From a virus (lineage: Duplodnaviria > Caudoviricetes), in the IMG/VR virus record IMGVR_UViG_3300020187_001966: a DNA stretch of 64,000 nt. One strand, written 5' to 3'. The position numbers and the translations under genes are program-made. A model generated the notes under the pieces. It did not search any database. It was not told the origin of the DNA and saw only the letters and a list, made by a program, of their open reading frames with translations. The stretch's first letter is position 1. Every line of letters begins with the position of its first letter. Below, in pieces: positions 11,025-37,916 of the stretch.

Positions 11025-11460
11025 ATTTTGGATTGTAGAATCCAAAGGCAGTAAAGTTGGAACACTAAAAAGTTCTAATGATGGCTACGTATTTTATAAT
11101 AATATAAATAGTACAGAGACACTATACGCAGATATGTCTAGTTTCACAGTAGAAGAAAAGAAAACTAGAACCTACATTAACGACACTGTTTATGGATACT
11201 CTGCTAATACCGAACAAGCGCACGATATTTCACTACAAGATACAGTGCCTATTTTTAAGAAGACAGCCACAAGTACACAACATTTTGCGGCTGGTTACTA
11301 TGGGATTAAGTTCCCACGTCTTGGATGGAGCGATGCTTTTTGTCCTAGACTAAAGACATTAGACACATACCAATTTATTGGTCCGTTTAAGTCACAAACA
11401 GACGTCAACATGGCGATAAAAAGGAAAGCACAGGAGAATGAAATATCTAATAGCACTTAG
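10990..11460 (+). CDS. Hypothetical phage protein
   Basis: 156-aa ORF in the co-oriented run. Confidence 0.7.
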   Translation: MKYKAKTVIENKFWIVESKGSKVGTLKSSNDGYVFYNNINSTETLYADMSSFTVEEKKTRTYINDTVYGYSANTEQAHDISLQDTVPIFKKTATSTQHFAAGYYGIKFPRLGWSDAFCPRLKTLDTYQFIGPFKSQTDVNMAIKRKAQENEISNST

Positions 11461-17486: not shown

Positions 17487-17931
17487 TGAAAATTGGGGCA
17501 TCGGTAAATCCGGTGCCCTTCCTTGGCCACACAACCCTGCTGACCTAAAATGGTTTAAAGCATCAACATTAAATCATACTATAGTAATGGGCAAGGCAAC
17601 ATGGGATAGTTTACCCGTCAAGCCGTTGTCCAATCGTGTCAATGTTGTTGTTTCTAGTTCTGATATACTTGCTAAGGTTGATGTATTATCAATCAGTGAC
17701 TTACGCCGCCGTCTATCGTCGATGGATGCTGAACAAGATGTATGGATTATTGGTGGTGCTAGATTGATTGAAGGTATGATGGACTATATTGACGAGTTCC
17801 ATTTAAGCCAAATCAAAGGCAATTACAATTGTGACACATTTTTACCAAGTACACTGATTCAAGAAAACTATAGTCTAACATCAAGTCAATTTCAAGGCGA
17901 TGTTTATGTTGATGTATGGAGTAAACGTTGA
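17458..17931 (+). CDS. folA: Dihydrofolate reductase
   Basis: IGKSGALPW..DLKWFK, IVMGKATWDS, PLSNRVNVV, WIIGG, CDTF. Confidence 0.92.
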   Translation: MMIRAILACDENWGIGKSGALPWPHNPADLKWFKASTLNHTIVMGKATWDSLPVKPLSNRVNVVVSSSDILAKVDVLSISDLRRRLSSMDAEQDVWIIGGARLIEGMMDYIDEFHLSQIKGNYNCDTFLPSTLIQENYSLTSSQFQGDVYVDVWSKR

Positions 17932-18359
17932 AGATATTAATATTTGGATTGCCTGGTAGTGGCAAAAGTACACTGGCAAAACCTTTCGCAGAGCTAATTG
18001 GCGGTGTACACATAAATGCTGACGCAGTTAGAACACAATATAACGACTGGGACTTTAGTCTTGAAGGTCGAAACAGACAAGCATCAAGAATAAAATACTT
18101 GGCAGATGGTGTAGTTATGGCAGGTAAGATTGCTGTTGCTGACTTTGTTTGTCCAACACACCTTACACGTATGGAGTTTAATCCTGACTACACAGTGTGG
18201 ATGGATACTATTTCTCGAGGTAGATTTGAAGATACGAATGATATGTTTGAAACACCTGAGCTTGTAGACTACCATGTTGAGAAATGGTTTGACAACGCAC
18301 ATGAACAACTAATGCCAGTAGTACAGCGTTGGATGAGTATTAATAATAAGAAAGAATAA
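17928..18359 (+). CDS. Adenylylsulfate kinase-like P-loop kinase (short)
   Basis: GLPGSGKST, NADAVR, DFSLEGRNRQ resemble CysC motifs; TTG start. Confidence 0.65.
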   Translation: MKILIFGLPGSGKSTLAKPFAELIGGVHINADAVRTQYNDWDFSLEGRNRQASRIKYLADGVVMAGKIAVADFVCPTHLTRMEFNPDYTVWMDTISRGRFEDTNDMFETPELVDYHVEKWFDNAHEQLMPVVQRWMSINNKKE

Positions 18360-18362
18360 AGA

Positions 18363-18539
18363 GTGAATAGAACACTTCAAGATGGTACTATAGTACCTGC
18401 TATAGACATGGCAGTAGAACTTAAAGTAGTTACAAAATGTCCAACTAAATGGCGTCTAATAGACGAAGAAACAGGAGTTGAGTACCGAGGAAAACTTCCA
18501 CAAGATGGTGGGTTACACTGGCAAAGGATAGAAGATTAA
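18363..18539 (+). CDS. 58-aa hypothetical protein (not in the ORF track)
   Basis: GTG..TAA frame MNRTLQDGT..TKCPTKWRLIDEETG..; fills the gap and overlaps the thyA start (TAATG). Confidence 0.6.
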   Translation: MNRTLQDGTIVPAIDMAVELKVVTKCPTKWRLIDEETGVEYRGKLPQDGGLHWQRIED

Positions 18540-19435
18540 TGTACCAATATTTAGAAGCACTACAATGTATTATGGATGACGGAGAAGATGTCAATGACCG
18601 TACTGGCGTTGGCACTCGTACTATTTTTGGATACCAGATGCGGGTTCCATTATCTTACAGTAATTTTCCAGCCGTAACAACAAAGAAACTAGCATGGAAG
18701 AGTGTAGTAGGAGAGCTGTTATGGTTCTTAGAAGGCAATACAGATGAACGTAGATTAGCAGAGATCACATTTGAGAAAGATCGAGAACAACTGTCGGATA
18801 AGAATACCATCTGGACTGCCAACGCTAACAAACAAGCAAAAGAATTAGGCTATGTAAAAGATGACGATCAAGACTATAAAGTTCTTGGTCCAGTATATGG
18901 ACATCAATGGCGTAACTTCGACGGAGAGTATTGGGTTAGTACACCACACCTTAAAGGTACAGATCAGATTAGCTGGATCATTAATGAGATTAAAACTAAT
19001 CCAGATAGTAGACGTATTATACTAAGTGCTTGGAACCCTAATCAACTTGATAAAATGACGTTGCCTCCTTGTCATACACTGGCACAGTTTAGGGTAATGA
19101 ACGGCAAACTAAGTTGTCAATTGTATCAGCGTAGTGCTGACATGTTCTTGGGAGTGCCGTTTAACATTGCTAGTTATAGTTTGCTTACTCACATGCTAGC
19201 GCAAATATGTGATTTAGAAGTAGGTACATTTATATGGACTGGCGGCGATTGCCACATATACAATAACCACATGGAGCAAGTAAAGCAACAACTAGAACGT
19301 ACACCTGCGGATGGTCCTATACTAGAGATGCCAGAGTTCAGTACACTAGAAGAATTACTAGCTACTAAACCAAGTGATTATAATCTTGTAGGATATGATC
19401 CAATGCCAACTATTAAAGCACCAATGGCGGTATAA
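18539..19435 (+). CDS. thyA: Thymidylate synthase
   Basis: DRTGVGT, ELLWFL, LGPVYGHQWR, LPPCH, YQRSADMFLGVPFNIASY, HIYNNH. Confidence 0.98.
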   Translation: MYQYLEALQCIMDDGEDVNDRTGVGTRTIFGYQMRVPLSYSNFPAVTTKKLAWKSVVGELLWFLEGNTDERRLAEITFEKDREQLSDKNTIWTANANKQAKELGYVKDDDQDYKVLGPVYGHQWRNFDGEYWVSTPHLKGTDQISWIINEIKTNPDSRRIILSAWNPNQLDKMTLPPCHTLAQFRVMNGKLSCQLYQRSADMFLGVPFNIASYSLLTHMLAQICDLEVGTFIWTGGDCHIYNNHMEQVKQQLERTPADGPILEMPEFSTLEELLATKPSDYNLVGYDPMPTIKAPMAV

Positions 19436-23423: not shown

Positions 23424-23684
23424 ATGGCTTATACACATGTAAGTAGACTTACAACTACATCAAGTGATACATTTGACACGGTGGAGGCTTGGTTAACTGC
23501 ACACGGAAGTTGTGGTCAAAATAGCGAAGGTCATACTAGTTGGAATGCTGTACTAGACGAAGGCGGCGCATCAATTACACGGACTGTAGTTTGGCCAATG
23601 AAAGCAGTAAGAGAATTTGAACGTAGCGAACGTCCAGATAATCCTACATTTGATGGTGTAGTAATTAGTGAATCTGAAGACTAA
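23424..23684 (+). CDS. Small acidic late protein
   Basis: CAGGAG RBS and its own late promoter; stop overlaps the convergent gene (CTAA). Confidence 0.75.
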   Translation: MAYTHVSRLTTTSSDTFDTVEAWLTAHGSCGQNSEGHTSWNAVLDEGGASITRTVVWPMKAVREFERSERPDNPTFDGVVISESED

Positions 23685-24355
23685 AGAACACCAGTATAAA
23701 TTCGTTGAACAGTGTCGTTTAGAACTCGATCAATAGATTTATTTTTTGCAAGATCTTGGAACTTTGTATCTCGTTTACAAAGTTCTTTTTCTTTGTGTAA
23801 TTGATTATCTAGTCCTAGTTTATGTAATAGTTCTACTAGACTATTTTGTTGTAAATCAAAATGTTGTTGAATAAATTTATTCTCTATAGCAATTTTTTCT
23901 CTCATACGCTTGTCATTCTCATACCAAGTATAGTGAGGATAAGTTATATTCCAACCTCCTACTTGATGCCACCAATCAAAACAAAAGTCATCTGGCATCC
24001 AAAATGCCAAGAACTTTGCTTCAGGAAACCATTCACGTAGTTGAGGTATATGATAACTAAACCAATGACTTTTAACGATCTTAATACCAGTATCCCAATC
24101 ATCGAAAGGTTCCTGAAATTGTGCTATTACATCGTCACGATTTAATTGATCCAGACGATCAAACTCTAAACCATAATCGTGTCCTGGTCCCCAATATGCA
24201 CCTCTGTGCCAACCTTTAGCGCCGTTAGTATAACTATCAGTGTTTACTTCATCTGACGTATTGATGTCTACTTGACTTTGTATACATCGAATTGCTCCGC
24301 TCCAACGACTGCCTGGTGTACCAGTTGCTATGATTAAATCTTTACCTTTATACAT
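23681..24355 (-). CDS. Sulfotransferase/P-loop-like protein
   Basis: IIATGTPGSRWSG; shares WHRGAYWGPG / VKSHWF with 26091; start moved from GTG 24364. Confidence 0.45.
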   Translation of the reverse strand: MYKGKDLIIATGTPGSRWSGAIRCIQSQVDINTSDEVNTDSYTNGAKGWHRGAYWGPGHDYGLEFDRLDQLNRDDVIAQFQEPFDDWDTGIKIVKSHWFSYHIPQLREWFPEAKFLAFWMPDDFCFDWWHQVGGWNITYPHYTWYENDKRMREKIAIENKFIQQHFDLQQNSLVELLHKLGLDNQLHKEKELCKRDTKFQDLAKNKSIDRVLNDTVQRIYTGVL

Positions 24356-25010
24356 AATTGCCACCCAAACTAGAACTTAGCAAAACTGTATTGCCAGTAG
24401 TAATACCTACTTGTGTACCAAGAGCACTCATTGTTCTAGTAGTACTAAATGCCCATTCTCTTTCTGCACACCACCAACAATCTTCACACGGTGGGTAACT
24501 AGTTTCGCAACTTACTGTTAGATCCTGTAATGCTTTTAAGTTATATTTTTTATATATCATTGCTAGATGGCTTTTATTAACATCATAAAACGGACGATAG
24601 AAATGATTATGAATTACTCTAGACAGTAACACATCTCTATCTTTTTTTCTTTGTTCATGATACTTTAACTTTACATCTGGGTTACGGGTTTTTCCACTTA
24701 CCCAGCAACTTAAATTGTATTGCTCAGTTAAATTATTAGTAGCTTGATCTCTATATTCTTTGCGTAATTCTAAGTTTGGCGCTATTGTTACACAATGCTC
24801 TAGTATTTTTACTGATGTATAGCACTGAATCCACCTGCTTACTGCTAGCGCAGGCTCTATATTATATTTCTTATCATCACTAGCAACTGTAAGTAACACA
24901 ACGTCATGCTGTCTTTGTGACGCTATTAACCAAAACAATATTGCGCTGTCACTACCGCCACTTAGATATATGCCTATAGGCCCTGTGGGTAATTTTATTT
25001 CGTCTGCCAC
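24348..25010 (-). CDS. QueC-like PP-loop ATPase #1
   Basis: LSGGSDS and C-terminal SC..CEDCWWCAER. Confidence 0.7.
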   Translation of the reverse strand: MADEIKLPTGPIGIYLSGGSDSAILFWLIASQRQHDVVLLTVASDDKKYNIEPALAVSRWIQCYTSVKILEHCVTIAPNLELRKEYRDQATNNLTEQYNLSCWVSGKTRNPDVKLKYHEQRKKDRDVLLSRVIHNHFYRPFYDVNKSHLAMIYKKYNLKALQDLTVSCETSYPPCEDCWWCAEREWAFSTTRTMSALGTQVGITTGNTVLLSSSLGGNYV

Positions 25011-26089
25011 AATAATTCTCTACTATTATTTTCTGCTACTAACTCAGCTACTGTACTTGCTAGTTCGCCATTAAATTGACGGCTACAATGATCGCTTCCA
25101 TAACATATTGTATTTGGATTATGCTCTGCTATTGTTCGTACAAATTCAATAGCTGACTGATGACTGGCATTACTGTCTTTTAGTAAGTTTCCTGGCATGC
25201 GTTTTAATGCTCCATTCCACCATATTACACCATTGCCTTGTTTAATTAGTAACAACAATTTATCGATGTCTGATCGGTTACTGATATTTACTCGATGATA
25301 GTGATGCTCTAAACTTTGGTATTGTTGCCAATGTGAGCTCCAATCAGCAAATTCAGCTTGTAGATTTTCCCAGATAATCATGTAATCATTATCTCTATCA
25401 GTAAACTTGTGTCTATTAAATAACTGCATGCTTGGATATTTTTGTTGTAGGTGTTTGATCCAACTTTTTATATCTGTACCATCCCATTCTTGAATGGTAT
25501 ATTTTCTAACAGCTAAACTTATCTTGCTTATGTCTATATGATGTACTACAGTGTCTGAGTGCATGCCATGATGATTTAATATCCCATTAATAAAGAATCC
25601 ACTACTCACTGTTATGGCCCAATCAACAGCCGTACTAGTTGCTCCGTATTCTGGGATTTCATTGTGCATCAAATAACTTATATTACTATCGTCTATTAAG
25701 TTAGTCACAGCGGCGCTATGACTGTGTGTAAATGTGTTTGCAGTAAAAGGATCAATTGATTGTATATTCATTTTTAAATCTATAGTACCTTCGCCCTGTG
25801 GTTGCCAGACGTCAGCACCACTACAAATGTTTATGTTCTCATAATTTTTTAATCTAGGAATAATGTTCTTTTCGTAGTTTCCCCATACTAATATAGTACC
25901 TGCTTGTATAATTAAAACACGATCGTACTTTGTATAATCAACTTGTTTAAAAACATCAATGACATGGTAATCATATTTGCTTTGACTATATCTACTGCTC
26001 ACACTGTGATCAATACTTAACTGACTATAGTTAAGTGCGATATCATCCCACCACGCATCTCCTGATTTAACTATTACAACACAATCCAT
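24995..26089 (-). CDS. Hypothetical protein
   Basis: 364-aa ORF within the coupled array; no motif recognised. Confidence 0.75.
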   Translation of the reverse strand: MDCVVIVKSGDAWWDDIALNYSQLSIDHSVSSRYSQSKYDYHVIDVFKQVDYTKYDRVLIIQAGTILVWGNYEKNIIPRLKNYENINICSGADVWQPQGEGTIDLKMNIQSIDPFTANTFTHSHSAAVTNLIDDSNISYLMHNEIPEYGATSTAVDWAITVSSGFFINGILNHHGMHSDTVVHHIDISKISLAVRKYTIQEWDGTDIKSWIKHLQQKYPSMQLFNRHKFTDRDNDYMIIWENLQAEFADWSSHWQQYQSLEHHYHRVNISNRSDIDKLLLLIKQGNGVIWWNGALKRMPGNLLKDSNASHQSAIEFVRTIAEHNPNTICYGSDHCSRQFNGELASTVAELVAENNSRELLWQTK

Positions 26090-26090
26090 T

Positions 26091-26798
26091 TTAGATCATC
26101 TCAAAATTATAGTAACTCATTTGTACATCATATCTCAATCGTTCAGTTGGATTATCATTTTTATGATGATATCCTATGAGACTATGACTGTACCGACGAT
26201 TTTCATCAGTATCATCTAACTTCCAAACGTCACGCCAGTGTCTAGGTGTACTAGTGTGTACTGCTAAATCACGTTCATAAATCCATTTACGTGCTAACAT
26301 ACACTCGTGGTTAATTAACTCTTTTGCCTGTTCAGTTGTTTTGTAAAACGTAGTATAATCAGGATATGGAATTTTAATACCACCTACTCCATGCCAACCA
26401 TCCCAACATGCTTCTGGATGTCGCATAACAATCATAATTTTACTTTCAGGAAACGTTTCAGCAATCCAATCTAAACTGTAAACAAACTGATGACACTTTA
26501 CTATAATATATCCGTCATGATTTGTATAAGCTAATTCTATTTCAGCAATCACTTGTTCACGTGTATATTTTCCAGTGTGTAGTTCATGAAACCATTCACC
26601 AAACTCAAATCCTGGACCAAAATATGCGCCCAAGTGTTTAACGCCATTAAACTCTGGACCATGATCATACCCACGCTCTGGTGATCGGTCACTGATGTTT
26701 ATATCAATTACTGGAGTATTAGCTAGTAATACACTAGTGGCACTCCATTTACTTCCTGGTGCTCCAGTAAAGAATATTATTTTATTTGTATCTATCAT
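26091..26798 (-). CDS. Sulfotransferase/P-loop-like protein, paralog of 23681
   Basis: IFFTGAPGSKWSA, HLGAYFGPG, IVKCHQF. Confidence 0.45.
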   Translation of the reverse strand: MIDTNKIIFFTGAPGSKWSATSVLLANTPVIDINISDRSPERGYDHGPEFNGVKHLGAYFGPGFEFGEWFHELHTGKYTREQVIAEIELAYTNHDGYIIVKCHQFVYSLDWIAETFPESKIMIVMRHPEACWDGWHGVGGIKIPYPDYTTFYKTTEQAKELINHECMLARKWIYERDLAVHTSTPRHWRDVWKLDDTDENRRYSHSLIGYHHKNDNPTERLRYDVQMSYYNFEMI

Positions 26799-27211
26799 GC
26801 TATTGTAATCGCAAAGCGCCTTTCTTCTATGTTCATAACTGTGTGATATGAATCAACTTCTAATATGTGCCACTGATGTTTATCTAGTACAACATCACAT
26901 GTGGGGGTTACCTGATCTTCATCATACCAAATAGTGTGTACATTAGCGCCGCCTGGGTCAATAATATAGTTTAACGCTGTCGTTCGTCCTCTGTCTTTGT
27001 GTACAGGTACACCATGTACTAGTGTTTGATAACGAAACTTTGTATATTCAGGAAACTGTTCTTGAAGATAGTCCGCCAATTCCGCTTGACATTCGTGTAT
27101 AGTGTAATTAGGGCTACGTCCGCCAAATATATTTTCAAGTTCTAATACTTGTTCAACTGGTAATATTAAATGCTCTGGCACAGCAGGCAAGTCTAAAAAT
27201 TTATATTTCAT
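26795..27211 (-). CDS. Putative cupin / Fe(II)-2OG oxygenase
   Basis: PVHKD ... SYHTV pattern. Confidence 0.5.
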   Translation of the reverse strand: MKYKFLDLPAVPEHLILPVEQVLELENIFGGRSPNYTIHECQAELADYLQEQFPEYTKFRYQTLVHGVPVHKDRGRTTALNYIIDPGGANVHTIWYDEDQVTPTCDVVLDKHQWHILEVDSYHTVMNIEERRFAITIA

Positions 27212-27945
27212 ACGATAAACTCTTTCATCTTTCGGTATTCTCTATAGCTAACATTAAGTACACGGCTGTTATTAGTCTGATTCCTCAATGCCATATTATT
27301 TTTTATTTGTGTTTCTATATGTTGATAAAAACTTCCACTGTTTAAATGCTCCCAAACATCTTGTACTGTAAAAAACAATCCCCAACGTTTACTTAATTGA
27401 TATAGCATTTTTCCATATTTAGTTTTGCTACCATTCATCCACTCAAGTTTAAGATAGGCAGGAAAATGCGCCGTTGTGTGCATATATCTATTTACTATAT
27501 CATCAGCATCTGCTACAATATTAATTACACGACTGTTGGGAAACTGTGTTAGTATTTCTTCTGGTAAACTATGCGTACAGTATAATAACCGATGTGTGTT
27601 TAGATATTGTTGACCTTGGGCTTTTTCAAACTGTGCTGGAAATAAGTCACGATAATATGTATCACAATCAACAAAATCTTTTACATAATCCCAGACTGGA
27701 GGCAATACTTCTCCGTTGGGCATAGTCCTATCAAAATGTTTGGGGGCTACTCGACGTTGAATTATCCAATCACACTTGTGCGATATGTTCCAAGGATTAA
27801 TACCGTTGTCTGAATTACTATACCAATACACTTCTGGTAAACTGCACAAGACACGCCCGATAGTGTGTCCTCTACTACCAGGTTCAAAACTTACAAAAAC
27901 AAAGTTTGGATTATTGTATACGTCCGAGATAATAGTAAACTCCAT
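27208..27945 (-). CDS. Hypothetical protein, possible sulfotransferase-like fold
   Basis: FVSFEPGSRGHTI loop, CTH, RVINI. Confidence 0.35.
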   Translation of the reverse strand: MEFTIISDVYNNPNFVFVSFEPGSRGHTIGRVLCSLPEVYWYSNSDNGINPWNISHKCDWIIQRRVAPKHFDRTMPNGEVLPPVWDYVKDFVDCDTYYRDLFPAQFEKAQGQQYLNTHRLLYCTHSLPEEILTQFPNSRVINIVADADDIVNRYMHTTAHFPAYLKLEWMNGSKTKYGKMLYQLSKRWGLFFTVQDVWEHLNSGSFYQHIETQIKNNMALRNQTNNSRVLNVSYREYRKMKEFIV

Positions 27946-28597
27946 TATTATATGTTACTAGGTCACCAGTGTGATACCAATCGTCATATACACAAATGTC
28001 ACCTTTAACTAGCAATTCATTGTCTACAATCTTTGTATCACAATGTGTTTGCTCGCCCATTATACTTTCAGTTAAACTGACTACGTCACCAGGATTAAAC
28101 GTACTATTAATTGCTACTGGGCCTACTTCTGTCATACCCCAATTAGCAATAAACGTGGCGCCACGATCAATAAATGATTGAATAATACGACTGTGTACTC
28201 TATCACTACCACACATAATAGTTATGCCACTCAAATTTACACTACTAAATCCTCGAGTTTTTATTACAGCACGAGCCATGTCTGGTGTTAAATGACTGTG
28301 TGTATAATCTGTAATTTGTCTAACCCAACTATAAGGATTAAACTTTTGTATGTCAACCAGGGCACCAACTTCTACGGCAGGTAATGTTTGCGCAAGTAAT
28401 CCGCCAGCATGTGTTAGTGTACACACTGTTAGTATACGACTATTAACAGTAATATCTTGTACTTGTCTAGCTACACTATTAGCGGCTTGTAGTTTATGTG
28501 GGGGTTGAAATATACGTCTAGGCGCACCAGTAGTACCACTGGTTGGCAATGCCGTACCAGTATTAATTATCTTTTTTAAAGTTTCGTTCAGTGCCAT
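27911..28597 (-). CDS. Truncated ANL-family adenylating enzyme (AMP-binding)
   Basis: TSGTTGAP, WGMTEVGP, YHTGDL, YLGR core motifs; only 228 aa. Confidence 0.75.
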   Translation of the reverse strand: MALNETLKKIINTGTALPTSGTTGAPRRIFQPPHKLQAANSVARQVQDITVNSRILTVCTLTHAGGLLAQTLPAVEVGALVDIQKFNPYSWVRQITDYTHSHLTPDMARAVIKTRGFSSVNLSGITIMCGSDRVHSRIIQSFIDRGATFIANWGMTEVGPVAINSTFNPGDVVSLTESIMGEQTHCDTKIVDNELLVKGDICVYDDWYHTGDLVTYNNGVYYYLGRIQ

Positions 28598-28784
28598 CTA
28601 CAATCCTCTTAGCTAGATAGTAAGGGGTAAACGGAAATAGCCACGGTATAAAACTGTGAATTATTCCTGTTACTAACACACCTAATGCTAGTATATTATA
28701 ATATGTAGCCAATGTCAAGTGTTTAAAATAACCGGCACCAGCCTTTTTAAGATGTTTAAAGTCGAATATTTTTGTATTTTTCAT
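28563..28784 (-). CDS. Small membrane-associated protein (DUF6356-like)
   Basis: GYFKHL...IIHSFIPWLF pattern. Confidence 0.5.
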   Translation of the reverse strand: MKNTKIFDFKHLKKAGAGYFKHLTLATYYNILALGVLVTGIIHSFIPWLFPFTPYYLAKRIVDGTERNFKKDN

Positions 28785-29262
28785 TATTTAATTTCCATAT
28801 ATTTTGTTGTGTATAAAATACTTCATCAGCTCTTACAAAATCTACAATACCATATTTGGCTAAATGATAAAATGTTCGATTAACACTTCCCATTTTACCG
28901 CTGGCATCGTTGTCTATATTTGTAGTGATGTACACAGGCTTATCTTGAGCGTATTCTAATTGTAATGGCAACTGTGTACTAAAACAGTAACTTTGCATGT
29001 GGTATCTGTTTAGTCCAACGTTACGTGAACGTAATTGTGCACCACGAAATAAAGCTCTATATCCATCTTCAAAAGGGTGTATACCACTTAAACTTATAAT
29101 TTCGTCATCAATGTATGTGGCAAACCAAGCACCAGATTCCAAACACCAATCCCATTTCATATTTTGTAGACTGGAGTTATTGTTGTATCCAAGTTTTTCA
29201 CATTGGCGTACAAACTCGCCTACTTGTACAATATGTTGATTGTCAATACGTTTAGACAGCAT
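28756..29262 (-). CDS. Possible GNAT-fold acyltransferase
   Basis: IISLSGI..RALFRG beta-strand pattern and size; weak. Confidence 0.35.
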   Translation of the reverse strand: MLSKRIDNQHIVQVGEFVRQCEKLGYNNNSSLQNMKWDWCLESGAWFATYIDDEIISLSGIHPFEDGYRALFRGAQLRSRNVGLNRYHMQSYCFSTQLPLQLEYAQDKPVYITTNIDNDASGKMGSVNRTFYHLAKYGIVDFVRADEVFYTQQNIWKLNNEKYKNIRL

Positions 29263-29836
29263 TTCTAACCACCGCCACTAAGTGAATTCTATTGTCTGTA
29301 CTAGCATTAAATGCTGTGTGTTTATGATGCTCAGTTTGTGTTAACCACCAAGTATTTTCTGGCATGTGCAAAACTTCATCTTCAATTACCATTTGACATC
29401 CTGGATCAGTAACTAGTGGGTAGTGTATTCTATTAGTACTATCTTGATGCCAAGTTAAACATGTTTTAGGAAGACTAGTCATTAATCTAACTCTACCAAG
29501 TGTATACTGACTGCTTAACTGTTGGTATACTTTAGCAAATATAGTATTTTCAAATACCGTACATAACTGAGTAAAGTGCTTTTCTCTTAAATGTTTATCT
29601 CGCAATGGTACAGTAAAGTGTGTTATATTACCGTCTTTATCTGCTTTATCAATTGTATTATTCCAATCATATTTTAAACTAGCATCTCCATGATGATAGT
29701 TGTCGGGCTGATCAGGTGTAGTATTAATACAAATTTGTCTGTGTGTACCCCAGTCAATTTTTTCTTGTTGTAATAACTCGTTCATACAACTGAGTAAATC
29801 ATATTGCGGTAAATCTAGTGGTGTGAAATATTTCAT
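29252..29836 (-). CDS. Aspartyl/asparaginyl beta-hydroxylase-like Fe(II)/2OG oxygenase
   Basis: RVRLM..LTWHQD..RIHYPL..HTAFNAS..RIHLV. Confidence 0.75.
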   Translation of the reverse strand: MKYFTPLDLPQYDLLSCMNELLQQEKIDWGTHRQICINTTPDQPDNYHHGDASLKYDWNNTIDKADKDGNITHFTVPLRDKHLREKHFTQLCTVFENTIFAKVYQQLSSQYTLGRVRLMTSLPKTCLTWHQDSTNRIHYPLVTDPGCQMVIEDEVLHMPENTWWLTQTEHHKHTAFNASTDNRIHLVAVVRNAV

Positions 29837-30513
29837 AATTTTAATTGTTGTATAGTTTCGTAACTTTTATCTCTGTCAAAGCTAAGAAAGAATTGATATG
29901 TATTGTTGGCATAACTATGCGCATCGTGTATAATGTTTGTGTCAATTAAATACATACGCCCAGCTTCAATTTCACAGTCTGGTGCGGCTAAATCAAACAC
30001 AGTGTTGTCTACATCTCTGGGATTGCTTCTAGCACTATTACGATCAAAACGTAACTTAACCATATCTGGTCTATCTGTACCCCATAGTCGCAGTATACGT
30101 CCTTGAAGTTTGGTATCAGTATGAGGATAAAACATACTGTTATCCATCCATTTTAGTATGCAACTACGTAATATACAATCTTTAAGTGGCTCTAAAAAAT
30201 CAAATGCTCGATGAGAAAGTATTTCTGTTGGTACTTGAAAGCTATGATCCCTAACACGGTCAGCATCTGCTAGCTGTGCATTCCACTGGTCTAGCGGATA
30301 GCAAACTGGTTCTGGATTGTTATGTAACTGCCCATTGGCATTTACTAATGGTAATCCATAACGTTGATGTTCTAAATGTCTGACACCCCATGCTCTAAAC
30401 GCATGTTGGTATTCACGCATACACTCTGAAAACAAGGTCATATTTGCTTTCATGTCAAGTGGAATCAAGGGTGCAGTGTGCATTTCCAAGTACTGTTGTT
30501 CAGTTTTTGTCAT
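29833..30513 (-). CDS. Putative Fe(II)/2OG (cupin) oxygenase
   Basis: FYPHTD ... MYLIDTNIIHDA. Confidence 0.55.
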   Translation of the reverse strand: MTKTEQQYLEMHTAPLIPLDMKANMTLFSECMREYQHAFRAWGVRHLEHQRYGLPLVNANGQLHNNPEPVCYPLDQWNAQLADADRVRDHSFQVPTEILSHRAFDFLEPLKDCILRSCILKWMDNSMFYPHTDTKLQGRILRLWGTDRPDMVKLRFDRNSARSNPRDVDNTVFDLAAPDCEIEAGRMYLIDTNIIHDAHSYANNTYQFFLSFDRDKSYETIQQLKL

Positions 30514-30514
30514 A

Positions 30515-31132
30515 TTATGTTATATAAGTTACCGCTATATCTTCTTTTGGGATTGCAGGGAATGTTAAACTATTATCTGCGTGGTGTATTCTTCTAGGAA
30601 TGTCGCCTTTATGACCAACACCCATAAGCAATACAATCTCGTCTTCAGTATTTAATATTTCTTGTATCTCGTCGCCTTCAAAACATGCACAACACCCTGT
30701 GTTATACCCCATTAGACTTGAGGTTAAATTTAAATATCCTGCCGCAATGCCAGTTGCCATATGTAAATCTCTACCAACACTGGCTTCATTGTCGCCATAA
30801 CTGTCACGTTTTTTATTTAATCTATTACTTTTTTCTGTATTGTTAGTGAACACAAATAATACATTAGCAAGGGTTTGACTATTGCTAACCATTTTCTCTT
30901 CATCTCTATGATAGAACCCTTCAGTTTTCTCATGGATACGCTCAATTGTGTCTCTGTCAGTAATAGTATATACATTATAGAAGGCGGCGTTTTGCTTACT
31001 AGGACAATTTGTAATAGCATGCACCATTGTTTGTAAATCCTCTTGTGGGATTTCTTTTTCTAAATTCCAATTACGTTGGCAATGTTGCGATCTAATTACA
31101 GCTTTTTTAATGCTTGATTCAGTTAATTCCAT
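30515..31132 (-). CDS. Nitroreductase-fold flavoprotein #1
   Basis: RSQHCQRNW, NCPSKQN, ATGIAAGYLNLTSSLMGYNTGCC, LLMGVG. Confidence 0.75.
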   Translation of the reverse strand: MELTESSIKKAVIRSQHCQRNWNLEKEIPQEDLQTMVHAITNCPSKQNAAFYNVYTITDRDTIERIHEKTEGFYHRDEEKMVSNSQTLANVLFVFTNNTEKSNRLNKKRDSYGDNEASVGRDLHMATGIAAGYLNLTSSLMGYNTGCCACFEGDEIQEILNTEDEIVLLMGVGHKGDIPRRIHHADNSLTFPAIPKEDIAVTYIT

Positions 31133-31155
31133 ACTAAATTCTCCTATATATATTA

Positions 31156-31163
31156 TATTTATA
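31156..31163 (-). promoter_or_regulatory. T4-type late promoter TATAAATA
   Basis: Exact consensus 23 nt upstream of ATG 31132, followed by an AGGAG RBS. Confidence 0.75.
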
Positions 31164-32271
31164 GTTTACGTTTGGGAATTTTGCTATCAGCACTGCTTAC
31201 ACAATTATCGCTAATACAAGGCATGGGCTTATCAAACAGTTTAAATCCTGTTTCAATATTACCCAATGGTACATCAGCACAGCTATAACTACGCTTTACA
31301 CTGCCATCTGGTTCACGTATAATAATACCTTGATAGCCAGCATTACAACTCCAGCCTTTAAACTTATTAAAATTAAATGCATTAAAACGTTCTGCTTGAT
31401 CCATGTACCATTTTTTGCCAGTTGAATCTTTAAATTCAATCTGCATGTGCCAGGGCACACTTTTATCATTATCACCTATTGTATACGGCGGCAGTTCGAA
31501 ACTAGGCCTTGGACGATCTGCCCACTTGCGTTTTTCCTCAGTATACGCCATTTGCGGCATGCCGTTCCACAATCGCTGTAACATCTCGTCCGTATAACCT
31601 TCCACGACTCTTGACGCCGTTGGATCGCTTTGTGGCTTGAGTGTGACGTTGATTCCTTGCTCGTGGAAGAACAAGGCATTTTCCCAATCCCTTTCGAACC
31701 ATTCCGGAACCATAACCATATTGATGGTAACCTGTACATCATGCTCCTGACATAATATGAGCTTGTCTGCAAACTCTTGTAGCTTGTCAAGTGTATTTAA
31801 GTGTTCTGTGTGTAAACTAGCGGTTATACTAGCTCTATGGAAAGGTTTTACCCGTTCTACATAGTCTTCGAACCATCGCATATTGCGACTACAGTTTGAT
31901 GTCATATGCACAGAGGTATAATTAGTGTTAGTAACATCATCAGCCAAATGACGCAAAATATCCAGATATCCTGGATGAAAAGTAGGCTCACCGCCAGACA
32001 GACTAAAATGAAAGCTATTAAAACCATTGCCACGTGCTTGTCTCTTTATCTCATCAATTGTGCTAAGACATAGCTCTGTTGGTCTATGATCTTTTCTATC
32101 TGAACGTGCGTAAGGCCAACAGTAACTACATCTGTAATTACAAAATCTACCAAGTAGCCAACTGACAGTAAATAAGTCACGATACAGCAGAGTACGCTGA
32201 CCAACACTAACAAGGTCGTCAAAGGGTATTTTAGTAAAGTCATATTCACTCCATTTTAAATCGTCAGTCAT
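31159..32271 (-). CDS. Radical SAM enzyme with C-terminal SPASM/twitch-like domain
   Basis: CNYRCSYC, SGGEP, C-terminal WSCNAG..SC..C..C. Confidence 0.88.
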   Translation of the reverse strand: MTDDLKWSEYDFTKIPFDDLVSVGQRTLLYRDLFTVSWLLGRFCNYRCSYCWPYARSDRKDHRPTELCLSTIDEIKRQARGNGFNSFHFSLSGGEPTFHPGYLDILRHLADDVTNTNYTSVHMTSNCSRNMRWFEDYVERVKPFHRASITASLHTEHLNTLDKLQEFADKLILCQEHDVQVTINMVMVPEWFERDWENALFFHEQGINVTLKPQSDPTASRVVEGYTDEMLQRLWNGMPQMAYTEEKRKWADRPRPSFELPPYTIGDNDKSVPWHMQIEFKDSTGKKWYMDQAERFNAFNFNKFKGWSCNAGYQGIIIREPDGSVKRSYSCADVPLGNIETGFKLFDKPMPCISDNCVSSADSKIPKRKL

Positions 32272-32542
32272 TTAATGTCTTTCTGGAACACTGCATTGTA
32301 CATATAGGAACAGGACTAGTTGTTGACCAACTGTCTTCAATATATTTTTCCCATAAGTCCATTATACTATAAGGATTGTTATTTGTCAAAAACAAAAGGT
32401 CATAATCATCGCCTAATTTTTCACGTAGATAATCAATACTTTCACGATGTGTGGCTAGCCAACAGCATGGTAAAAACATTCCGTTTATTTCAATATGGTA
32501 ATTAACGTCAGTCGTTTGACATTTTGGATCAATATTACTCAC
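32264..32542 (-). CDS. Stand-alone SPASM/twitch-like Fe-S domain
   Basis: PKC..FLPCCW..PICTMQC; GTG start with AAAGGTGG RBS; start moved from 32587. Confidence 0.65.
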   Translation of the reverse strand: MSNIDPKCQTTDVNYHIEINGMFLPCCWLATHRESIDYLREKLGDDYDLLFLTNNNPYSIMDLWEKYIEDSWSTTSPVPICTMQCSRKTLND

Positions 32543-33209
32543 GATGTCCACCTTTCTCTGTAAACAACACCTCAAAATCTGTGCCACGATATGATGGTTC
32601 TAGATGTGGATTTTCTTCAACAATAGGATATTTTACTCTAATTACATCAAAGCCTAGTTGTCTACTTTGGTCAATAATTTTAAGAATGTTGTTTTCGTTA
32701 TAACTGAATACTAAAAGTTTTTGTACTACTAATGGTCTTGTTTTAGGTGGCATACTGACAAGTGTCTGAACTCCCAACTGTCTGCTCCGAGCATCGTTAT
32801 TAACACGATACTGGTCGTCTTCTAATAGACCGTCAATACTAAACAATATTTGGTCCAGTGGTTGTAGTACTGCTCCTAACTGACGCCAAAAGTCAGCATC
32901 TTTGTAACTTCCGTTTGTATGAATATAGATAGGCACATCAGTAACAGTTTTAATATAAGCGATAAACTCTATTAGATCAGGATAGTATATTGGATCTCCC
33001 CAATTACCACAAAATAGTATTGATTGGTATGATAAATCTTTAATAACTCCACGATATTGATGCCAATCAATTTGTCGTTGCTCTTTAATATCACGCCATA
33101 ATGTATTAATCGTAGGATTGCTCATTGTACGTACACACTCTGGACAAGACAGAGTGCATTTACTTGTCAGACCAAAATGTAAATAGCTAATATCTTTACT
33201 AAAGGGCAT
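32535..33209 (-). CDS. Radical SAM core domain (split from its SPASM domain)
   Basis: CTLSCPEC, CGNWGDP, HTNGS, FSIDG; start moved from 33239. Confidence 0.85.
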   Translation of the reverse strand: MPFSKDISYLHFGLTSKCTLSCPECVRTMSNPTINTLWRDIKEQRQIDWHQYRGVIKDLSYQSILFCGNWGDPIYYPDLIEFIAYIKTVTDVPIYIHTNGSYKDADFWRQLGAVLQPLDQILFSIDGLLEDDQYRVNNDARSRQLGVQTLVSMPPKTRPLVVQKLLVFSYNENNILKIIDQSRQLGFDVIRVKYPIVEENPHLEPSYRGTDFEVLFTEKGGHRE

Positions 33210-33756
33210 ACCAATAGGCATCCTGTACAGGGTCAACACTTAATTCATTTATATTAATATGTGCTGGTTGATCTATTATCCATTTAATGTAATCTGCGGC
33301 TGTATCAATCGCCATACATCGTCTATCAGGGTGTTTATGTTCATTATTACTAAGTGTACCAAAACTAATGTAGCTTACTTTGGGCATACGACTCCATACA
33401 CCTCCAATGCTAAGTGTATTACTGTAATCACGTAGTGCTTTCTTTTCAGCGTTGTATAACCAGGCCTTGCCGTTCTTAACACGGTCCGTGGTACTACCAA
33501 TGACTACTATATGTGCTAGTTTCTTGGCATCCTTTAGGCTCTTGTACACTGTATCTAGTAGCACAGTTTGTTGAAACTGCCATAGTGCGCTGTTAACTAT
33601 AATAACATCATGATTGAGTGCTTCAGCGGCAAATGCGTCTCTTCCTGATCTTTCTACCAAGTCATGTCCGGTACTTCTACTCATAAAAGTGGCATCTGGA
33701 TATAACTGGGATAACGATTGCGCTATCCCTTGTGTAGGATTACCTGATATTAGCAT
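33199..33756 (-). CDS. Short-chain dehydrogenase/reductase-like protein
   Basis: Rossmann-like start, IVNSA, IGST, YNAEK (YxxxK). Confidence 0.65.
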   Translation of the reverse strand: MLISGNPTQGIAQSLSQLYPDATFMSRSTGHDLVERSGRDAFAAEALNHDVIIVNSALWQFQQTVLLDTVYKSLKDAKKLAHIVVIGSTTDRVKNGKAWLYNAEKKALRDYSNTLSIGGVWSRMPKVSYISFGTLSNNEHKHPDRRCMAIDTAADYIKWIIDQPAHININELSVDPVQDAYWYAL

Positions 33757-34858
33757 TTATTATCTCCCATGCTTGTTTATTTACACTAGTAAAATCTGTT
33801 TTTTGATGTCGATCCATAATATTAATATAATCACGAGTTGTGGTTAACTGATTATCAATCGTAATGTCTGCTGTTAGTATGCGGTCTAACTCCGTGTTAC
33901 CAGTTACAAATTGTTCTCTAACTGATAATGGTAATTGATATATACTTAAATGTTTTGGAAACGTTAATTCACTAAACGAAACTTTTATATTGTAACGTTT
34001 AAGATAATCTTGTAATGTCCATAACTTATTAAAATTAAGTATACTTACTGTACAACTGGCGTAAAGATTAATGTCGGTTTCAGCAAAACGTCGAATGTTA
34101 CTGTCAATTGTATTCCAACTTATTCCAAACCTGGTGGTCTCTGCTAGCTCATGAGTGCCATCTAAACTAAATGATATAACACTGTTTGGAAAGTATTTTA
34201 ATTGTTGTATAACTTTTTCATCTGGGTATACACTACCGTTTGTTGTAATATTTAAAAATAGTTTATTAGGGGTCTGTACTTCTTGGTGTAGTTTATCTAT
34301 AAACCAACTTAAATGTTTAGCATAAAAAGGTTCGCCACCTTCTATTTTTATATGTCTGGCTTGACTTAAATCAGTATTACCCAACACCACTCGCATACGT
34401 TCTTGGTAATTACGGTAATTATTGGCTGGGTCATAATTAATACCAGCCGCATCTAACTCCGCCAACAAGCTGGAGTTATTCCATTTACTACTAGCACCAG
34501 GGTTACATATTTGGCATCTCATGTTACAGGTATAATCCAGTGCTATTTCTAAATCTTGTATAGTGGCTGGTTGGAATAAATTATGCTGTCCATAAAACTT
34601 ATTTGACCAAACTCTTCGACTTTCAGCACCACCTTGTTCTGCTAACTGACACATCTGACATCCACTGGGCCATTGCCCATGGTTAAGGTTACGTTTTATA
34701 TTATGATAAGGTGGTGTTTGATGTAACCCGTCTAAACTATCTATGTCAAATATAGTAGGCAAGTCTACAGGGTCTGAAAACTTACAACAAGGACGGACGG
34801 TGCCACCACTATCAACAACGCTAACGCCTACTTGGCTATGTACACAAAAATTAGTCAT
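33740..34858 (-). CDS. Radical SAM enzyme with N-terminal twitch-like domain
   Basis: FC..VRPCC, CQMC, CNMRCQIC, GGEP. Confidence 0.88.
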   Translation of the reverse strand: MTNFCVHSQVGVSVVDSGGTVRPCCKFSDPVDLPTIFDIDSLDGLHQTPPYHNIKRNLNHGQWPSGCQMCQLAEQGGAESRRVWSNKFYGQHNLFQPATIQDLEIALDYTCNMRCQICNPGASSKWNNSSLLAELDAAGINYDPANNYRNYQERMRVVLGNTDLSQARHIKIEGGEPFYAKHLSWFIDKLHQEVQTPNKLFLNITTNGSVYPDEKVIQQLKYFPNSVISFSLDGTHELAETTRFGISWNTIDSNIRRFAETDINLYASCTVSILNFNKLWTLQDYLKRYNIKVSFSELTFPKHLSIYQLPLSVREQFVTGNTELDRILTADITIDNQLTTTRDYINIMDRHQKTDFTSVNKQAWEIINANIR

Positions 34859-35979
34859 AATAATTTACTTAAATCTTGATTTTTTATCTGTTGTTTGTCT
34901 AGTATAAAATCTGTAACAGTTGTATGACTAAAACCAGTACCTATTCTATCATGCATACTTTGCAAGTATTGTTCAAATCTTTTAGCATTTTGTAACTTTG
35001 TATGTTGGTTATGGTATCTAGCATAAACTTCTTGTGCTCTTACTATATGTTTTCGATAATCGGTATCTAAGTTCTTTATATCAATTACACTGGGTATGGT
35101 GATATAACTTCCATGCCAACTAAATGACTTATCAGGTGCAACAGTTAACATTGTTTCATGCACCCATTCAATATAATCAGCTAGTCCTCTTATACTAAGT
35201 GCATTAGTAGTAGGTGCTAGTGTAATACTTTCGACTTCTGGTGTGGTTGCATACGTAATAAAATTAGTTTTAAATCTTTCCCAATCTAGTCCATACCTTG
35301 ACAACTCTGCATCAGTACCAAATGTTTCATTACTAATAGCAATATTCCAAGGTTTGCCACTGCCACGTATAGTTTTTAATAATCGTTCCATCATAGGTGC
35401 TTTTGTATTACAATTTGTACAGATTTCAAACTGCGCATCAACAGGCAATGTGTTTATATACTCTACCATTGGAGCGAAACGTTTACTAGCAGTTGGTTCA
35501 CCACCTAAAAAATTAAATACTATACTACCACTAAGTGTTGATACCCAACGTTTAAATGTTTCAAAGTCACGCTCAGTACCGTCATCACGTATAGGCACAC
35601 CTTCTTCTTGAGCTATTTGACTACTAGCATCTGCGGCACAGTATAAACAGCTCTGGTCACATATAGTATCAAGTGTTACGTCAATATAAGTTGTGTGTGG
35701 ATCACGAGTTACTGTACTAAAGTCTTGCCACGTATTTTGTTGTGAACGATAACTGGGTATGCCAGCGTTTTCACTTTCCCAACAGTGTGTACAATCTGGG
35801 TGTTGTTCACCAGACAGTGTGCTAGATCTTCTTTGCTGTATTTGAGGACTGTTATTAAAAAAATCTATGTCGTATTCATCAGGCATTGGGTATGCCTTGG
35901 ACCTACAACAGTTTCTTATTAATCTATTTGCAAAATCTATGTTTACATCAGTCCAGCTTTTGCTGCATGCTGTTTTCAT
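34855..35979 (-). CDS. Radical SAM enzyme with N-terminal twitch-like domain
   Basis: CSKSW..NCC, CTHCW, CDQSCLYC, GGEP; start moved from 36012, which lies inside a terminator hairpin. Confidence 0.85.
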   Translation of the reverse strand: MKTACSKSWTDVNIDFANRLIRNCCRSKAYPMPDEYDIDFFNNSPQIQQRRSSTLSGEQHPDCTHCWESENAGIPSYRSQQNTWQDFSTVTRDPHTTYIDVTLDTICDQSCLYCAADASSQIAQEEGVPIRDDGTERDFETFKRWVSTLSGSIVFNFLGGEPTASKRFAPMVEYINTLPVDAQFEICTNCNTKAPMMERLLKTIRGSGKPWNIAISNETFGTDAELSRYGLDWERFKTNFITYATTPEVESITLAPTTNALSIRGLADYIEWVHETMLTVAPDKSFSWHGSYITIPSVIDIKNLDTDYRKHIVRAQEVYARYHNQHTKLQNAKRFEQYLQSMHDRIGTGFSHTTVTDFILDKQQIKNQDLSKLL

Positions 35980-35984
35980 AATAT

Positions 35985-35992
35985 TACTTATA
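35985..35992 (-). promoter_or_regulatory. Late-promoter variant TATAAGTA
   Basis: 1 mismatch to TATAAATA, just after a terminator and 5 nt before ATG 35979. Confidence 0.55.
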
Positions 35993-35998
35993 CTCGTG

Positions 35999-36024
35999 AA
36001 AACAGCCGCCATAACGGCGACTGT
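35999..36024 (-). terminator. Intrinsic terminator after nitroreductase #2
   Basis: ACAGTCGCC-GTTAT-GGCGGCTGT stem (1 G:U) followed by TTT on the - strand. Confidence 0.65.
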
Positions 36025-36042
36025 GTTCTAGTTCTTTAGCTG

Positions 36043-36675
36043 TTAAATGCGATTAACAGCAATATCTTCTTTTTTGTTTGTTGGAAACATAAATCCAGTT
36101 TCGTGATGTAAACGTCTGTTACGTGTTGAGTCTTTAATACCCACACCTTGTAACATTGCTGGACGGTTTTTAAGTCCTAGTACGTCACGAATGGCATCCA
36201 TTTTACCACACTGACAACAACCAGTACTATATCCAAGAATACTTGCTGTTAAGTTAATATATCCACCTGCAATACCAATTGCTGTCGATACATCTCTCTT
36301 AAATACTTCACGGTCAGCAGCATCTTTTTGCTCCCATCGTGCACGACTTTTATCTGTTAAGTCTTCAATTTCGTTTGGCTCAAATACAAATAAGACATTT
36401 GCTAGTACTTGACTGTTTGTACTCTCAATTTGGTTATTGTCTTTGTCATAAGTGTGTGTGCCTGTTGCCAAAGCATGTACTTGTTCAATAAGTGAACGAT
36501 CAGTAATGACGTGTAACTTATAAAAAGCAACATTTTGCTTACTTGGGCAGTTTGTTGCAGCATGTACTAGTGTATCAATATCAGCTTCAGGAATACTTTG
36601 ATCTAAATCAAAGTTTCTTTGACAATGTTGACTGCGTATAACTGCTTTTTTAATATCTACGGTTGTTAATTCCAT
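36043..36675 (-). CDS. Nitroreductase-fold flavoprotein #2
   Basis: RSQHCQRNF, NCPSKQN, TAIGIAGGYINLTASILGYSTGCC; close paralog of 30515. Confidence 0.75.
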   Translation of the reverse strand: MELTTVDIKKAVIRSQHCQRNFDLDQSIPEADIDTLVHAATNCPSKQNVAFYKLHVITDRSLIEQVHALATGTHTYDKDNNQIESTNSQVLANVLFVFEPNEIEDLTDKSRARWEQKDAADREVFKRDVSTAIGIAGGYINLTASILGYSTGCCQCGKMDAIRDVLGLKNRPAMLQGVGIKDSTRNRRLHHETGFMFPTNKKEDIAVNRI

Positions 36676-36702
36676 TGATGTTTTCCTCCTATACGATATA
36701 TG

Positions 36703-36710
36703 TATTTATA
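36703..36710 (-). promoter_or_regulatory. T4-type late promoter TATAAATA
   Basis: Exact consensus 27 nt upstream of ATG 36675; AGGAGG RBS. Confidence 0.75.
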
Positions 36711-36713
36711 CAA

Positions 36714-37916
36714 TTAACCAATAAGTTTATTGTTATAAACATAATCAGCAATTCTTGGTAGTTTTTTCTCACCAGTTTTAAAATAAAGTTGATCTTGCAA
36801 ACGTACAATTGTTTTAAATAGTTCAGCGTCAGCAGTTTGTGGTGTTTGCATGTACTTTATAATAGGATTATCAGGGCCATGCAATTCAGTTAAAAAGCTC
36901 TTGACATTATCTGGTAAATTTGCTATATCTAAACCTGCAGGATAGTGTACAAATGTGGCATCAGTATGAGCTGAAATGCCCATGGCTTGTATTTGGTCTA
37001 CTAATTTGTTTAAGTCGTGAAACGTCTCACTGGCGTAGAATGCATGGTAAGCGGTACTGGTACACACCAAGTATACACCAAGTATATTGCTACTTGCACT
37101 GAGTATTTTAAACAAGTTATCAACAACCTGATCGTAATCGCCACCTTGCCTAAAATAATTAAACAGTTCATGTGTGCCATCCATACTAACTGTTAAGTCT
37201 ACTCCACCAAAGTGGTTCCACAACTCACTTAGTTTATAACTCTTAAACTCTATCATACTCATGTTTGTGTTGTATGCAATAGTAAGTTTACTAGTATCAA
37301 TGTCTGGCTCACTGATAAGTCTCTCTAAAAAGCGATAATGTCCTATATGATATAATGGTTCACCACCACTAAATGTAATCCTTTTAACACCCTGAATTAT
37401 ATTTTGTATAATGTCTTCCAAATGTTCAGCGGTTATTGTTTGTATTGGTGAGTCAGCAGGTCCAATATGATCAAAGCCTGCACGTAACAACATTTCATGT
37501 GTTTCAGTATTTTTCTTGCCTAGTTGTTCAAACTGACTATTACTATCTGCCATACAGTGTCTACAAAAATAATTACAAGTACGACTAAATTTAAGTTCTA
37601 AATCTAGTATACCTGTTGAAACTGGAGTAGTATAGTCTATTGAACTGTCGTCCCAGTGTTTGTTATTGAGACTTTTTTGTCTATAACTTTTTACACCGTT
37701 TTCTTCTTTGTATTGGCAGTCTTCACATCCAGCTGGAAACTCGCCATTAATTAAGCTATTGCGCACTGCTAGCATATTTGGATGATTAACTGCTTCGCTT
37801 GGCAGTGTATCACGCATACTAGCAATAGGCTGACGTTTAACTTTGTATCTAAAGCAAGGTGCGTATTCTCCTTGAAGAAAGTCTAAATGACTCCAAGCAT
37901 ACTTACATTTCAGCAT
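36714..37916 (-). CDS. Radical SAM enzyme with N-terminal twitch-like domain
   Basis: CKYAW..APC, CEDC, CNYFCRHC, SGGEP. Confidence 0.88.
   Translation of the reverse strand: MLKCKYAWSHLDFLQGEYAPCFRYKVKRQPIASMRDTLPSEAVNHPNMLAVRNSLINGEFPAGCEDCQYKEENGVKSYRQKSLNNKHWDDSSIDYTTPVSTGILDLELKFSRTCNYFCRHCMADSNSQFEQLGKKNTETHEMLLRAGFDHIGPADSPIQTITAEHLEDIIQNIIQGVKRITFSGGEPLYHIGHYRFLERLISEPDIDTSKLTIAYNTNMSMIEFKSYKLSELWNHFGGVDLTVSMDGTHELFNYFRQGGDYDQVVDNLFKILSASSNILGVYLVCTSTAYHAFYASETFHDLNKLVDQIQAMGISAHTDATFVHYPAGLDIANLPDNVKSFLTELHGPDNPIIKYMQTPQTADAELFKTIVRLQDQLYFKTGEKKLPRIADYVYNNKLIG

Follow-up and report, generated by a model that had tools for sequence, protein, structure and literature searches.

The late promoter box of bacteriophage T4 spans positions -13 to -6 and is read by gp55 (PMC1524935). 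Other T4-like phages carry NATAAATA or CTAAATA in its place, and the late promoters found in five T4-like genomes all stood ahead of T4 late gene orthologues (PMC1524935). In pelagimyophages late promoters were not predictable, and a nitroreductase is not discussed for them (PMC7029224). Here we describe two paralogous nitroreductase-fold genes, copy 1 and copy 2, in a 64,000-nucleotide (nt) stretch of phage DNA (the window), which is the reverse strand of bases 57221-121220 in the 150,961-bp IMG/VR phage record IMGVR_UViG_3300020187_001966. Each gene is preceded by an exact match to the T4 late promoter box, and both lie within a long array of radical S-adenosylmethionine (SAM) and other tailoring genes. 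Our literature search for reports linking a nitroreductase to pelagimyophages, radical SAM enzymes or late promoters turned up nothing specific.

A first-pass annotation, made from the letters alone, had proposed a perfect T4 late promoter and a strong Shine-Dalgarno (SD) sequence before each gene, and both proposals held. Exact TATAAATA boxes are present on the minus strand at 31163-31156, 23 nt before the ATG of copy 1, and at 36710-36703, 27 nt before the ATG of copy 2, with predicted starts at ~31150 and ~36697. In copy 1 the box is followed by AGGAG at 31145-31141, 8 nt before the ATG at 31132, and this start ranks 16th of the 158 open reading frames (ORFs) in the record by anti-SD duplex energy. 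In copy 2, AGGAGG at 36685-36690 lies 9 nt before the ATG at 36675, and its duplex energy is the second strongest of the 158. Host RNA polymerase carrying the phage gp55 would be expected to start ~6 nt after each TATAAATA box, giving leaders of 18-22 nt with strong ribosome-binding sites for both copies.

The phage is a marine jumbo T4-like phage with a genome of 64% A+T. Its record, 41% complete by CheckV, encodes homologues of gp46 and gp47, a T4-type portal, and a baseplate wedge protein. A homologue of the late sigma factor gp55 (292 amino acids (aa), record 17693-18571; tblastn E 6e-4, phrog_12791 E 1e-92, phrog_234 E 1e-22) directly adjoins the gp46/gp47 homologues, as in T4. Database comparison revealed near-identical DNA in marine metagenomes from many studies, and a megablast search of the cultured phage collection with window positions 30000-37000 gave no match.

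The placement of the box argues for promoter function. Overall, TATAAATA is rarer than expected, with six copies in the window compared to 11.2 in shuffled sequence. Ten of the 15 copies in the 151-kb record nevertheless lie no more than 45 nt upstream of a same-strand start, where ~0.4 would be expected; such positions make up 2.8% of all strand-positions, corresponding to an enrichment of ~24-fold. Furthermore, the orientation of the box matches that of the local genes for 14 of the 15. Two exact copies in the window, at 11103-11110 (plus strand) and 54551-54558 (minus strand), are located inside reading frames on the sense strand, one of them in a conserved carbamoyltransferase-like segment. 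These two are probably not promoters; they could have arisen by chance or serve as internal late promoters.

We consider a comparison of regions upstream of homologous genes to be the strongest test of the promoter reading. The loci given L-numbers here are related IMG/VR phage contigs, the phage's own record (L005, L008), and contigs of metagenome-assembled genomes (MAGs; L046-L052). Among 24 distinct homologue upstream regions on IMG/VR contigs, whose encoded proteins are 39-98% identical, 14 have [A/C]TAAATA 17-35 nt before the ATG, compared to 41 of 405 (10%) for the other genes of the same loci (odds ratio 12, Fisher p=5e-8). The box is conserved before homologues of 45-70% identity. It is also present where the gene is alone on its strand, and it is kept where some stand-alone genes have neighbours on the opposite strand. 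Additional nitroreductase paralogues in L012, L014, and L022 have it as well, and L010 (5941-6000) carries twin TATAAATA boxes before its copy 2 orthologue. Because the box recurs before homologues, including stand-alone copies and paralogues, we take the late promoter to belong to the nitroreductase gene and to move with it. We conclude that the TATAAATA boxes at both copies are very probably real T4-type late promoters.

Copy 2 (36043-36675, minus strand; 210 aa, PF00881 E 3e-12) has the appearance of a self-contained cassette. Its box at 36703-36710 is kept upstream of the orthologues in L009, L010, and L011. Directly after the gene, at 35999-36024 on the minus strand, there is an intrinsic-terminator-like hairpin of nine pairs with a 5-nt loop and a U run. 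The hairpin itself (36024-36002, with the U run reaching 35999) has a predicted stability of -18.5 kcal/mol (z -3.1), and none of 200 shuffled sequences was as stable. L010 and L011 have a hairpin and T run at the equivalent place. Their stems differ, with a TTCG loop and one compensatory change from a T-A to a G-C pair. Beyond the hairpin, TATAAGTA, a variant box resembling a late promoter, occupies 35985-35992 (minus strand); exactly 5 nt separate it from the ATG at 35979, where the next radical SAM gene begins. This ATG is taken as the true start of that gene because the NF033640 alignment sets in only at residue 13 of the longer ORF. L009-L011 and L028 all retain the arrangement [T/C]ATAAGTA-N5-ATG.

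Thus, the terminator that had been predicted directly after copy 2 is supported by both its stability and its conservation, and the fresh promoter predicted to follow it is plausible: the sequence suggests that transcription could restart at TATAAGTA after the copy 2 terminator, and from the spacing such a restart at TATAAGTA-N5-ATG would likely be leaderless. The restart would serve the radical SAM genes after copy 2, while promoter, SD, gene, and terminator together would yield a monocistronic mRNA of ~700 nt. The earlier description of copy 2 as a stand-alone transcription unit agrees with the conserved terminator, the restart signal, and RNA contigs that span the gene (described below), and we regard a monocistronic copy 2 transcript as probable.

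The distance between box and start codon falls into two classes. Across 584 distinct gene starts, the ATAAATA-to-ATG distance shows a sharp spike at 5 nt (nine cases), with none at 6-8 nt, and a second, broad peak at 17-30 nt. When ATAA[A/G]TA is considered, 13 of the 584 starts have the motif exactly 5 nt before the ATG, again with none at 6-8 nt. Because the box occupies -13 to -6, the 5-nt spacing sets the A of the ATG at +1, and this class therefore predicts leaderless late mRNAs. Members of the class are found in the window at 1852-1867 and 35979-35992, elsewhere in the record at L005:7439-7454 and L008:7886-7901, and in L013, L014, L025, L036, L038, and L044. Each of the four instances in the record opens an ORF of 103-374 aa.

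The RNA evidence consists of contigs assembled from four marine metatranscriptome runs of four studies, and these contigs cover small parts of 30000-37500. Copy 2 is spanned in three runs, by contigs at 36061-36666 and 36067-36676 and by two overlapping contigs covering 36068-36685, and within those three runs the copy 2 contigs have the highest depth. Their upper ends at copy 2 (36666-36685) stop just short of the predicted start at 36697. Three runs give partial cover of copy 1 and of the radical SAM gene that precedes it. Positions 32510-35020 are uncovered in all four, which is not evidence of silence. The uneven cover argues against plain carry-over of DNA, and the pattern fits, as a weak hint, a discrete and comparatively abundant copy 2 mRNA. 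The products of both genes had been described as abundant late proteins. The part of this claim that stands is a relatively high expression of copy 2, with which the contigs are consistent in that they cover this gene better than its neighbours, but a late promoter by itself implies neither abundance nor late-only synthesis.

Both proteins match PF00881 (Nitroreductase) over the full profile length, and their scores, 44.2 and 47.6 bits, exceed the cut-off of 23.5. They are 50% identical to each other and have in common the motifs RSQHCQRN, NCPSKQN, and GY.TGCC, in agreement with their first-pass designation as nitroreductase-fold paralogues. Structure prediction also bore out the fold. The AlphaFold2 model of copy 2 has a pLDDT of 90.4, and a Foldseek search with it gave 184 PDB chains at E<=0.001, the top ones all nitroreductase-type. 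The best matches are NfoR, NfsB, FRase-type, and YdfN-type enzymes (TM-score 0.6-0.68), and the enone reductase CLA-ER is among the fold relatives. A phmmer search of PDB sequences with copy 2 gave no match; in sequence searches of solved structures, nitroreductases were reached solely by the family profile. Copy 2 has no NCBIfam match at E<=0.001, and copy 1 has a single marginal match to a RutE-type model (18.6 bits against a cut-off of 152). A BluB or SagB-type identity was considered and rejected: neither copy matched their NCBIfam models at E<=0.001, and a BluB-like PDB chain was matched only over the N-terminal third.

The family comprises at least 646 clusters, many of them on contigs of 100-518 kb, and a feature search of the ESM Atlas gave clusters of this family only, nearly all of them viral. 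The family alignment has 44 invariant columns, including residues of the FMN-site type. The cysteines C43, C153, C154, and C156 are invariant and C18 is nearly so; the C-terminal R187-R188 and P44-S45..N48 (a P-S-x-x-N helix motif) are also invariant. In a profile alignment to NfsB-type chains, the five cysteines would take the places of flavin-lining residues. The Pfam domain begins at residue 13, no extension precedes the first helix (residues 5-14), and the N-terminal sequences differ among family members. These features place the proteins, as far as sequence can tell, in a phage-dominated, cysteine-rich clade near NfsB/flavin-reductase enzymes, and they would act as soluble FMN oxidoreductases.

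Copy 1 (30515-31132, minus strand; 205 aa, PF00881 E 3e-11) is the first gene of a coupled row. Eleven more abutting or overlapping genes follow at 23681-30513 on the same strand, identified from ORF lists and Pfam, making 12 coupled genes that end at 23681. Their products include Asp/Asn-hydroxylase-like, AMP-binding, sulfotransferase-like, and PP-loop/QueC-like proteins and a 73-aa membrane ORF. The latter (28563-28784, minus strand) has one strongly hydrophobic segment and closes the row's sole apparent gap, and a good sigma-70-like match, TTGACA-N17-TATACT, lies inside it at 28718-28690. A motif scan found no further ATAAATA box before any downstream gene of the row, and no terminator-like match between its genes; the same-strand matches are all within reading frames.

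The copy 1 box, at 31156-31163 on the minus strand, overlaps the stop codon of a radical SAM gene directly upstream (31159-32271, minus strand; 370 aa, PF04055), and this junction of radical SAM gene, ATAAATA, and nitroreductase gene is kept in L009, L014, and L028. The radical SAM protein is 83-87% identical across loci where the nitroreductase is ~50% identical. Across metagenomic clusters its identity is 83-94%, with 4853 database clusters, and a tblastn search of the cultured phage collection gave no match. A candidate early promoter with a perfect sigma-70 consensus, TTGACA-N17-TATAAT (12/12 match), is present at 32361-32389 on the minus strand, 90 nt upstream of the radical SAM gene and inside the preceding ORF. 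Before the orthologues in L012, L014, L022, L023, and L029 the same consensus ends 5-6 nt before the ATG, and early mRNAs of these orthologues are for this reason likely to be leaderless, as judged from the spacing. At 32264-33239 (minus strand) two ORFs overlap by 53 nt in different frames, one encoding a radical SAM core (234 aa) and the other a Cys-rich product of 107 aa. L010 repeats this split with 228 and 103 aa; it represents either two genes whose arrangement is kept or a frameshift that is conserved.

The promoter within the radical SAM stop codon would thus act as an internal late booster of the 12-gene row, and the sigma-70 promoter upstream would probably feed the row too. The proposal that copy 1 leads a late operon reaching 23681 is therefore only partly upheld: the row is coupled and free of gaps, but copy 1 need not be late only, since a perfect sigma-70 promoter can also reach the row.

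The row belongs to a single long co-directional gene array on the minus strand, which runs from 23681 to beyond 64000 and contains many radical SAM enzymes, several of the N-terminal twitch type NF033640 and one of the B12-binding class. The array also encodes QueC-like PP-loop proteins, an Asp/Asn-hydroxylase-like oxygenase, sulfotransferase-like proteins, and an AMP-binding fragment. We count ~16 radical SAM genes in the record and an island of at least 40 kb. The flavodoxin profile PF00258 has no match in this record, which is 41% complete, and none in a complete 518-kb relative that has at least 22 radical SAM matches and three PF00881 genes.

Similar surroundings recur elsewhere. At many phage loci a homologue stands beside twitch-type radical SAM, SDR-like, and hydroxylase-like genes, and the same neighbourhood is found in contigs labelled Bdellovibrionales (L046-L052; GC 42-57%, up to 178 kb), an assignment that is the label of the MAG; the contigs may not be chromosomal. 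In L049 seven twitch-type radical SAM genes form a row that encloses a clade member. Loci rich in radical SAM genes have two or three nitroreductase paralogues. Three lie within a few kilobases in L014 (5289-8430) and in L028 (1739-6636); in L014 a separate ATAAATA box precedes every one of the three, and one of these boxes belongs to the 5-nt leaderless class. Among cultured phages, a tblastn search with copy 2 found only Pelagibacter phage Mosig (27.5% identity), whose homologue is among sugar-tailoring genes, beside VrlC. This block of Mosig is the host recognition cluster of pelagimyophages (PMC7029224).

Taken together, the neighbourhoods speak for a soluble enzyme linked to the island of tailoring genes. 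On balance, we lean toward the view that copies 1 and 2 are individually late-promoted redox genes whose products work, late in infection, with the island of radical SAM and Fe-2-oxoglutarate (2OG) tailoring enzymes. Their most likely role would be that of a shared NAD(P)H-linked redox helper, dosed above the individual catalysts. We propose this role tentatively; a shared helper is preferred over a single-step catalyst because of the separate promoter, strong SD, trans location, and paralogy. A supply of electrons to the radical SAM enzymes is plausible in that it fits the neighbourhoods, although it would be chemically strained for a two-electron flavoenzyme.

Several observations weigh against this view. 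Nitroreductase-type flavoenzymes normally carry out two-electron chemistry, with potentials too high for radical SAM clusters, and therefore the helper role needs special chemistry or another acceptor. In addition, the canonical R-x-S-x-[RK] flavin-phosphate motif is Q-H-C-Q-R in these proteins. In about one-third of the related loci the nitroreductase gene stands alone, and in the complete 518-kb phage it is far from any radical SAM cluster. As for late transcription, gp45, the clamp, has no match by tblastn or PF09116 in the 41%-complete record, and copy 1 can, by its position, be reached by early read-through from the sigma-70 promoter at 32389-32361. The U run of the copy 2 terminator is just 4 nt. 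Assembled contigs reveal neither ends, strand, nor level, and timing cannot be read from them; one RNA-library contig (36513-36723) even crosses the copy 2 promoter, possibly because of read-through or contaminating DNA.

Among other explanations, the best surviving one holds that the proteins are pathway-specific tailoring enzymes (ene, enone, or imine reductases or FMN dehydrogenases) that act on one intermediate, the promoters being internal late boosters. The embedding of the genes in translationally coupled tailoring rows fits this idea, as do CLA-ER among the fold relatives and the position of the Mosig homologue next to VrlC, and the paralogues could mirror different substrates. We nevertheless consider it doubtful: the promoter accompanies the gene even when it is alone among opposite-strand genes, the copy 2 promoter serves one gene because a terminator follows, and the gene of the complete 518-kb phage is distant from all radical SAM clusters.

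It is also conceivable that each gene is an autonomous late cassette unrelated to the island, with hypervariable regions merely collecting such cassettes; flavin or ferric-iron reduction, detoxification of quinones or nitro-compounds, and late redox balancing are examples of what such a cassette might do. Many phages have the gene as a stand-alone copy under its own promoter, frequently with a terminator as well, the nearest relatives of solved structure belong to the NAD(P)H:flavin, quinone, and nitro reductases, and the upstream regions of both copies are alike, as if promoter and gene had been duplicated together. The repeated occurrence of twitch-type radical SAM neighbours, in phage and Bdellovibrionales-labelled contigs, and the retention of the junction with a conserved radical SAM gene speak against a lack of connection, and we regard this explanation as unlikely.

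A bolder form of the helper idea is that the five cysteines hold a metal or iron-sulfur centre or a redox relay, making the protein a one-electron donor that the phage would produce in late bursts, so as to drive twelve or more radical SAM enzymes instead of relying on flavodoxin from the host. Flavodoxin/flavodoxin reductase is the usual electron donor of these enzymes in cells. We judge such a replacement improbable.

That the proteins are virion-associated or polymer-forming late structural proteins, as the first-pass annotation had considered, is very hard to maintain, since beyond the late promoter, strong SD, and apparent transcript abundance nothing speaks for it, whereas the proteins have no N-terminal extension or conserved cleavable leader and their N-termini vary, active-site-type residues are invariant, homologues reside within radical SAM and other enzyme rows of Bdellovibrionales-labelled contigs, and no cyclodipeptide-oxidase-like small subunit partner stood out among the neighbours, for which no dedicated search was made. 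An identity as a T4 capsid-targeted internal protein was likewise rejected, given the lack of a cleavable N-terminal targeting leader and N-termini that are unconserved across the family. Finally, there is scant chance that the TATAAATA matches are accidental features of AT-rich intergenic DNA rather than promoters: the motif is short, the genome is A+T-rich, and two copies in the window fall within reading frames, but the enrichment upstream of starts, the strand bias, the phage-encoded gp55, the retention of the motif before diverged homologues, and the two sharp spacing classes all argue otherwise.

The type of promoter described here is textbook knowledge. Its consistent link to one enzyme family in many uncultured marine jumbo and T4-like phages provides a marker of late transcription units where late promoters were previously unpredictable, and it picks out one small, easily expressed protein within large radical SAM islands. 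With >640 sequence clusters, nearly all viral, and a rewritten, cysteine-rich flavin site, the clade may represent a new flavoenzyme. If it is true that the protein feeds electrons to radical SAM enzymes, it would be a new answer to a general problem. The predicted leaderless late and early mRNAs can be checked in existing metatranscriptomes.

Compared to the T4-type late promoters, which need no -35 element and are used by gp55 together with gp33 and the gp45 clamp, the locus has the exact 8-bp box, an encoded gp55, enrichment of the box before genes, and ATAAATA/CTAAATA variants in relatives. It differs in that the box precedes a redox enzyme rather than a virion gene and in having a subclass whose spacing of exactly 5 nt between box and ATG predicts leaderless late mRNAs. 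Like the host recognition cluster of pelagimyophages and cyanomyophages, the island groups radical SAM, 2OG oxygenase, and sugar-tailoring genes of a marine T4-like phage into one large, variable block, and the distant nitroreductase homologue of Mosig is found in such a block, next to VrlC. However, the island described here is larger, at least 40 kb, with ~16 radical SAM genes in the record. The proteins resemble the NfsB, FRase I, NfoR, and YdfN-type oxidoreductases in the full-length PF00881 match, the predicted fold, the C-terminal Arg-Arg, and the P-S-x-x-N helix motif, but their identity to solved enzymes is just 11-21%, five cysteines are invariant or nearly so, Q-H-C-Q-R replaces R-x-S-x-K, and the clade is almost entirely viral. 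With flavodoxin/flavodoxin reductase they have in common that a putative FMN protein occurs in genomes full of radical SAM genes; they differ in their nitroreductase fold, of which one-electron chemistry is not expected.

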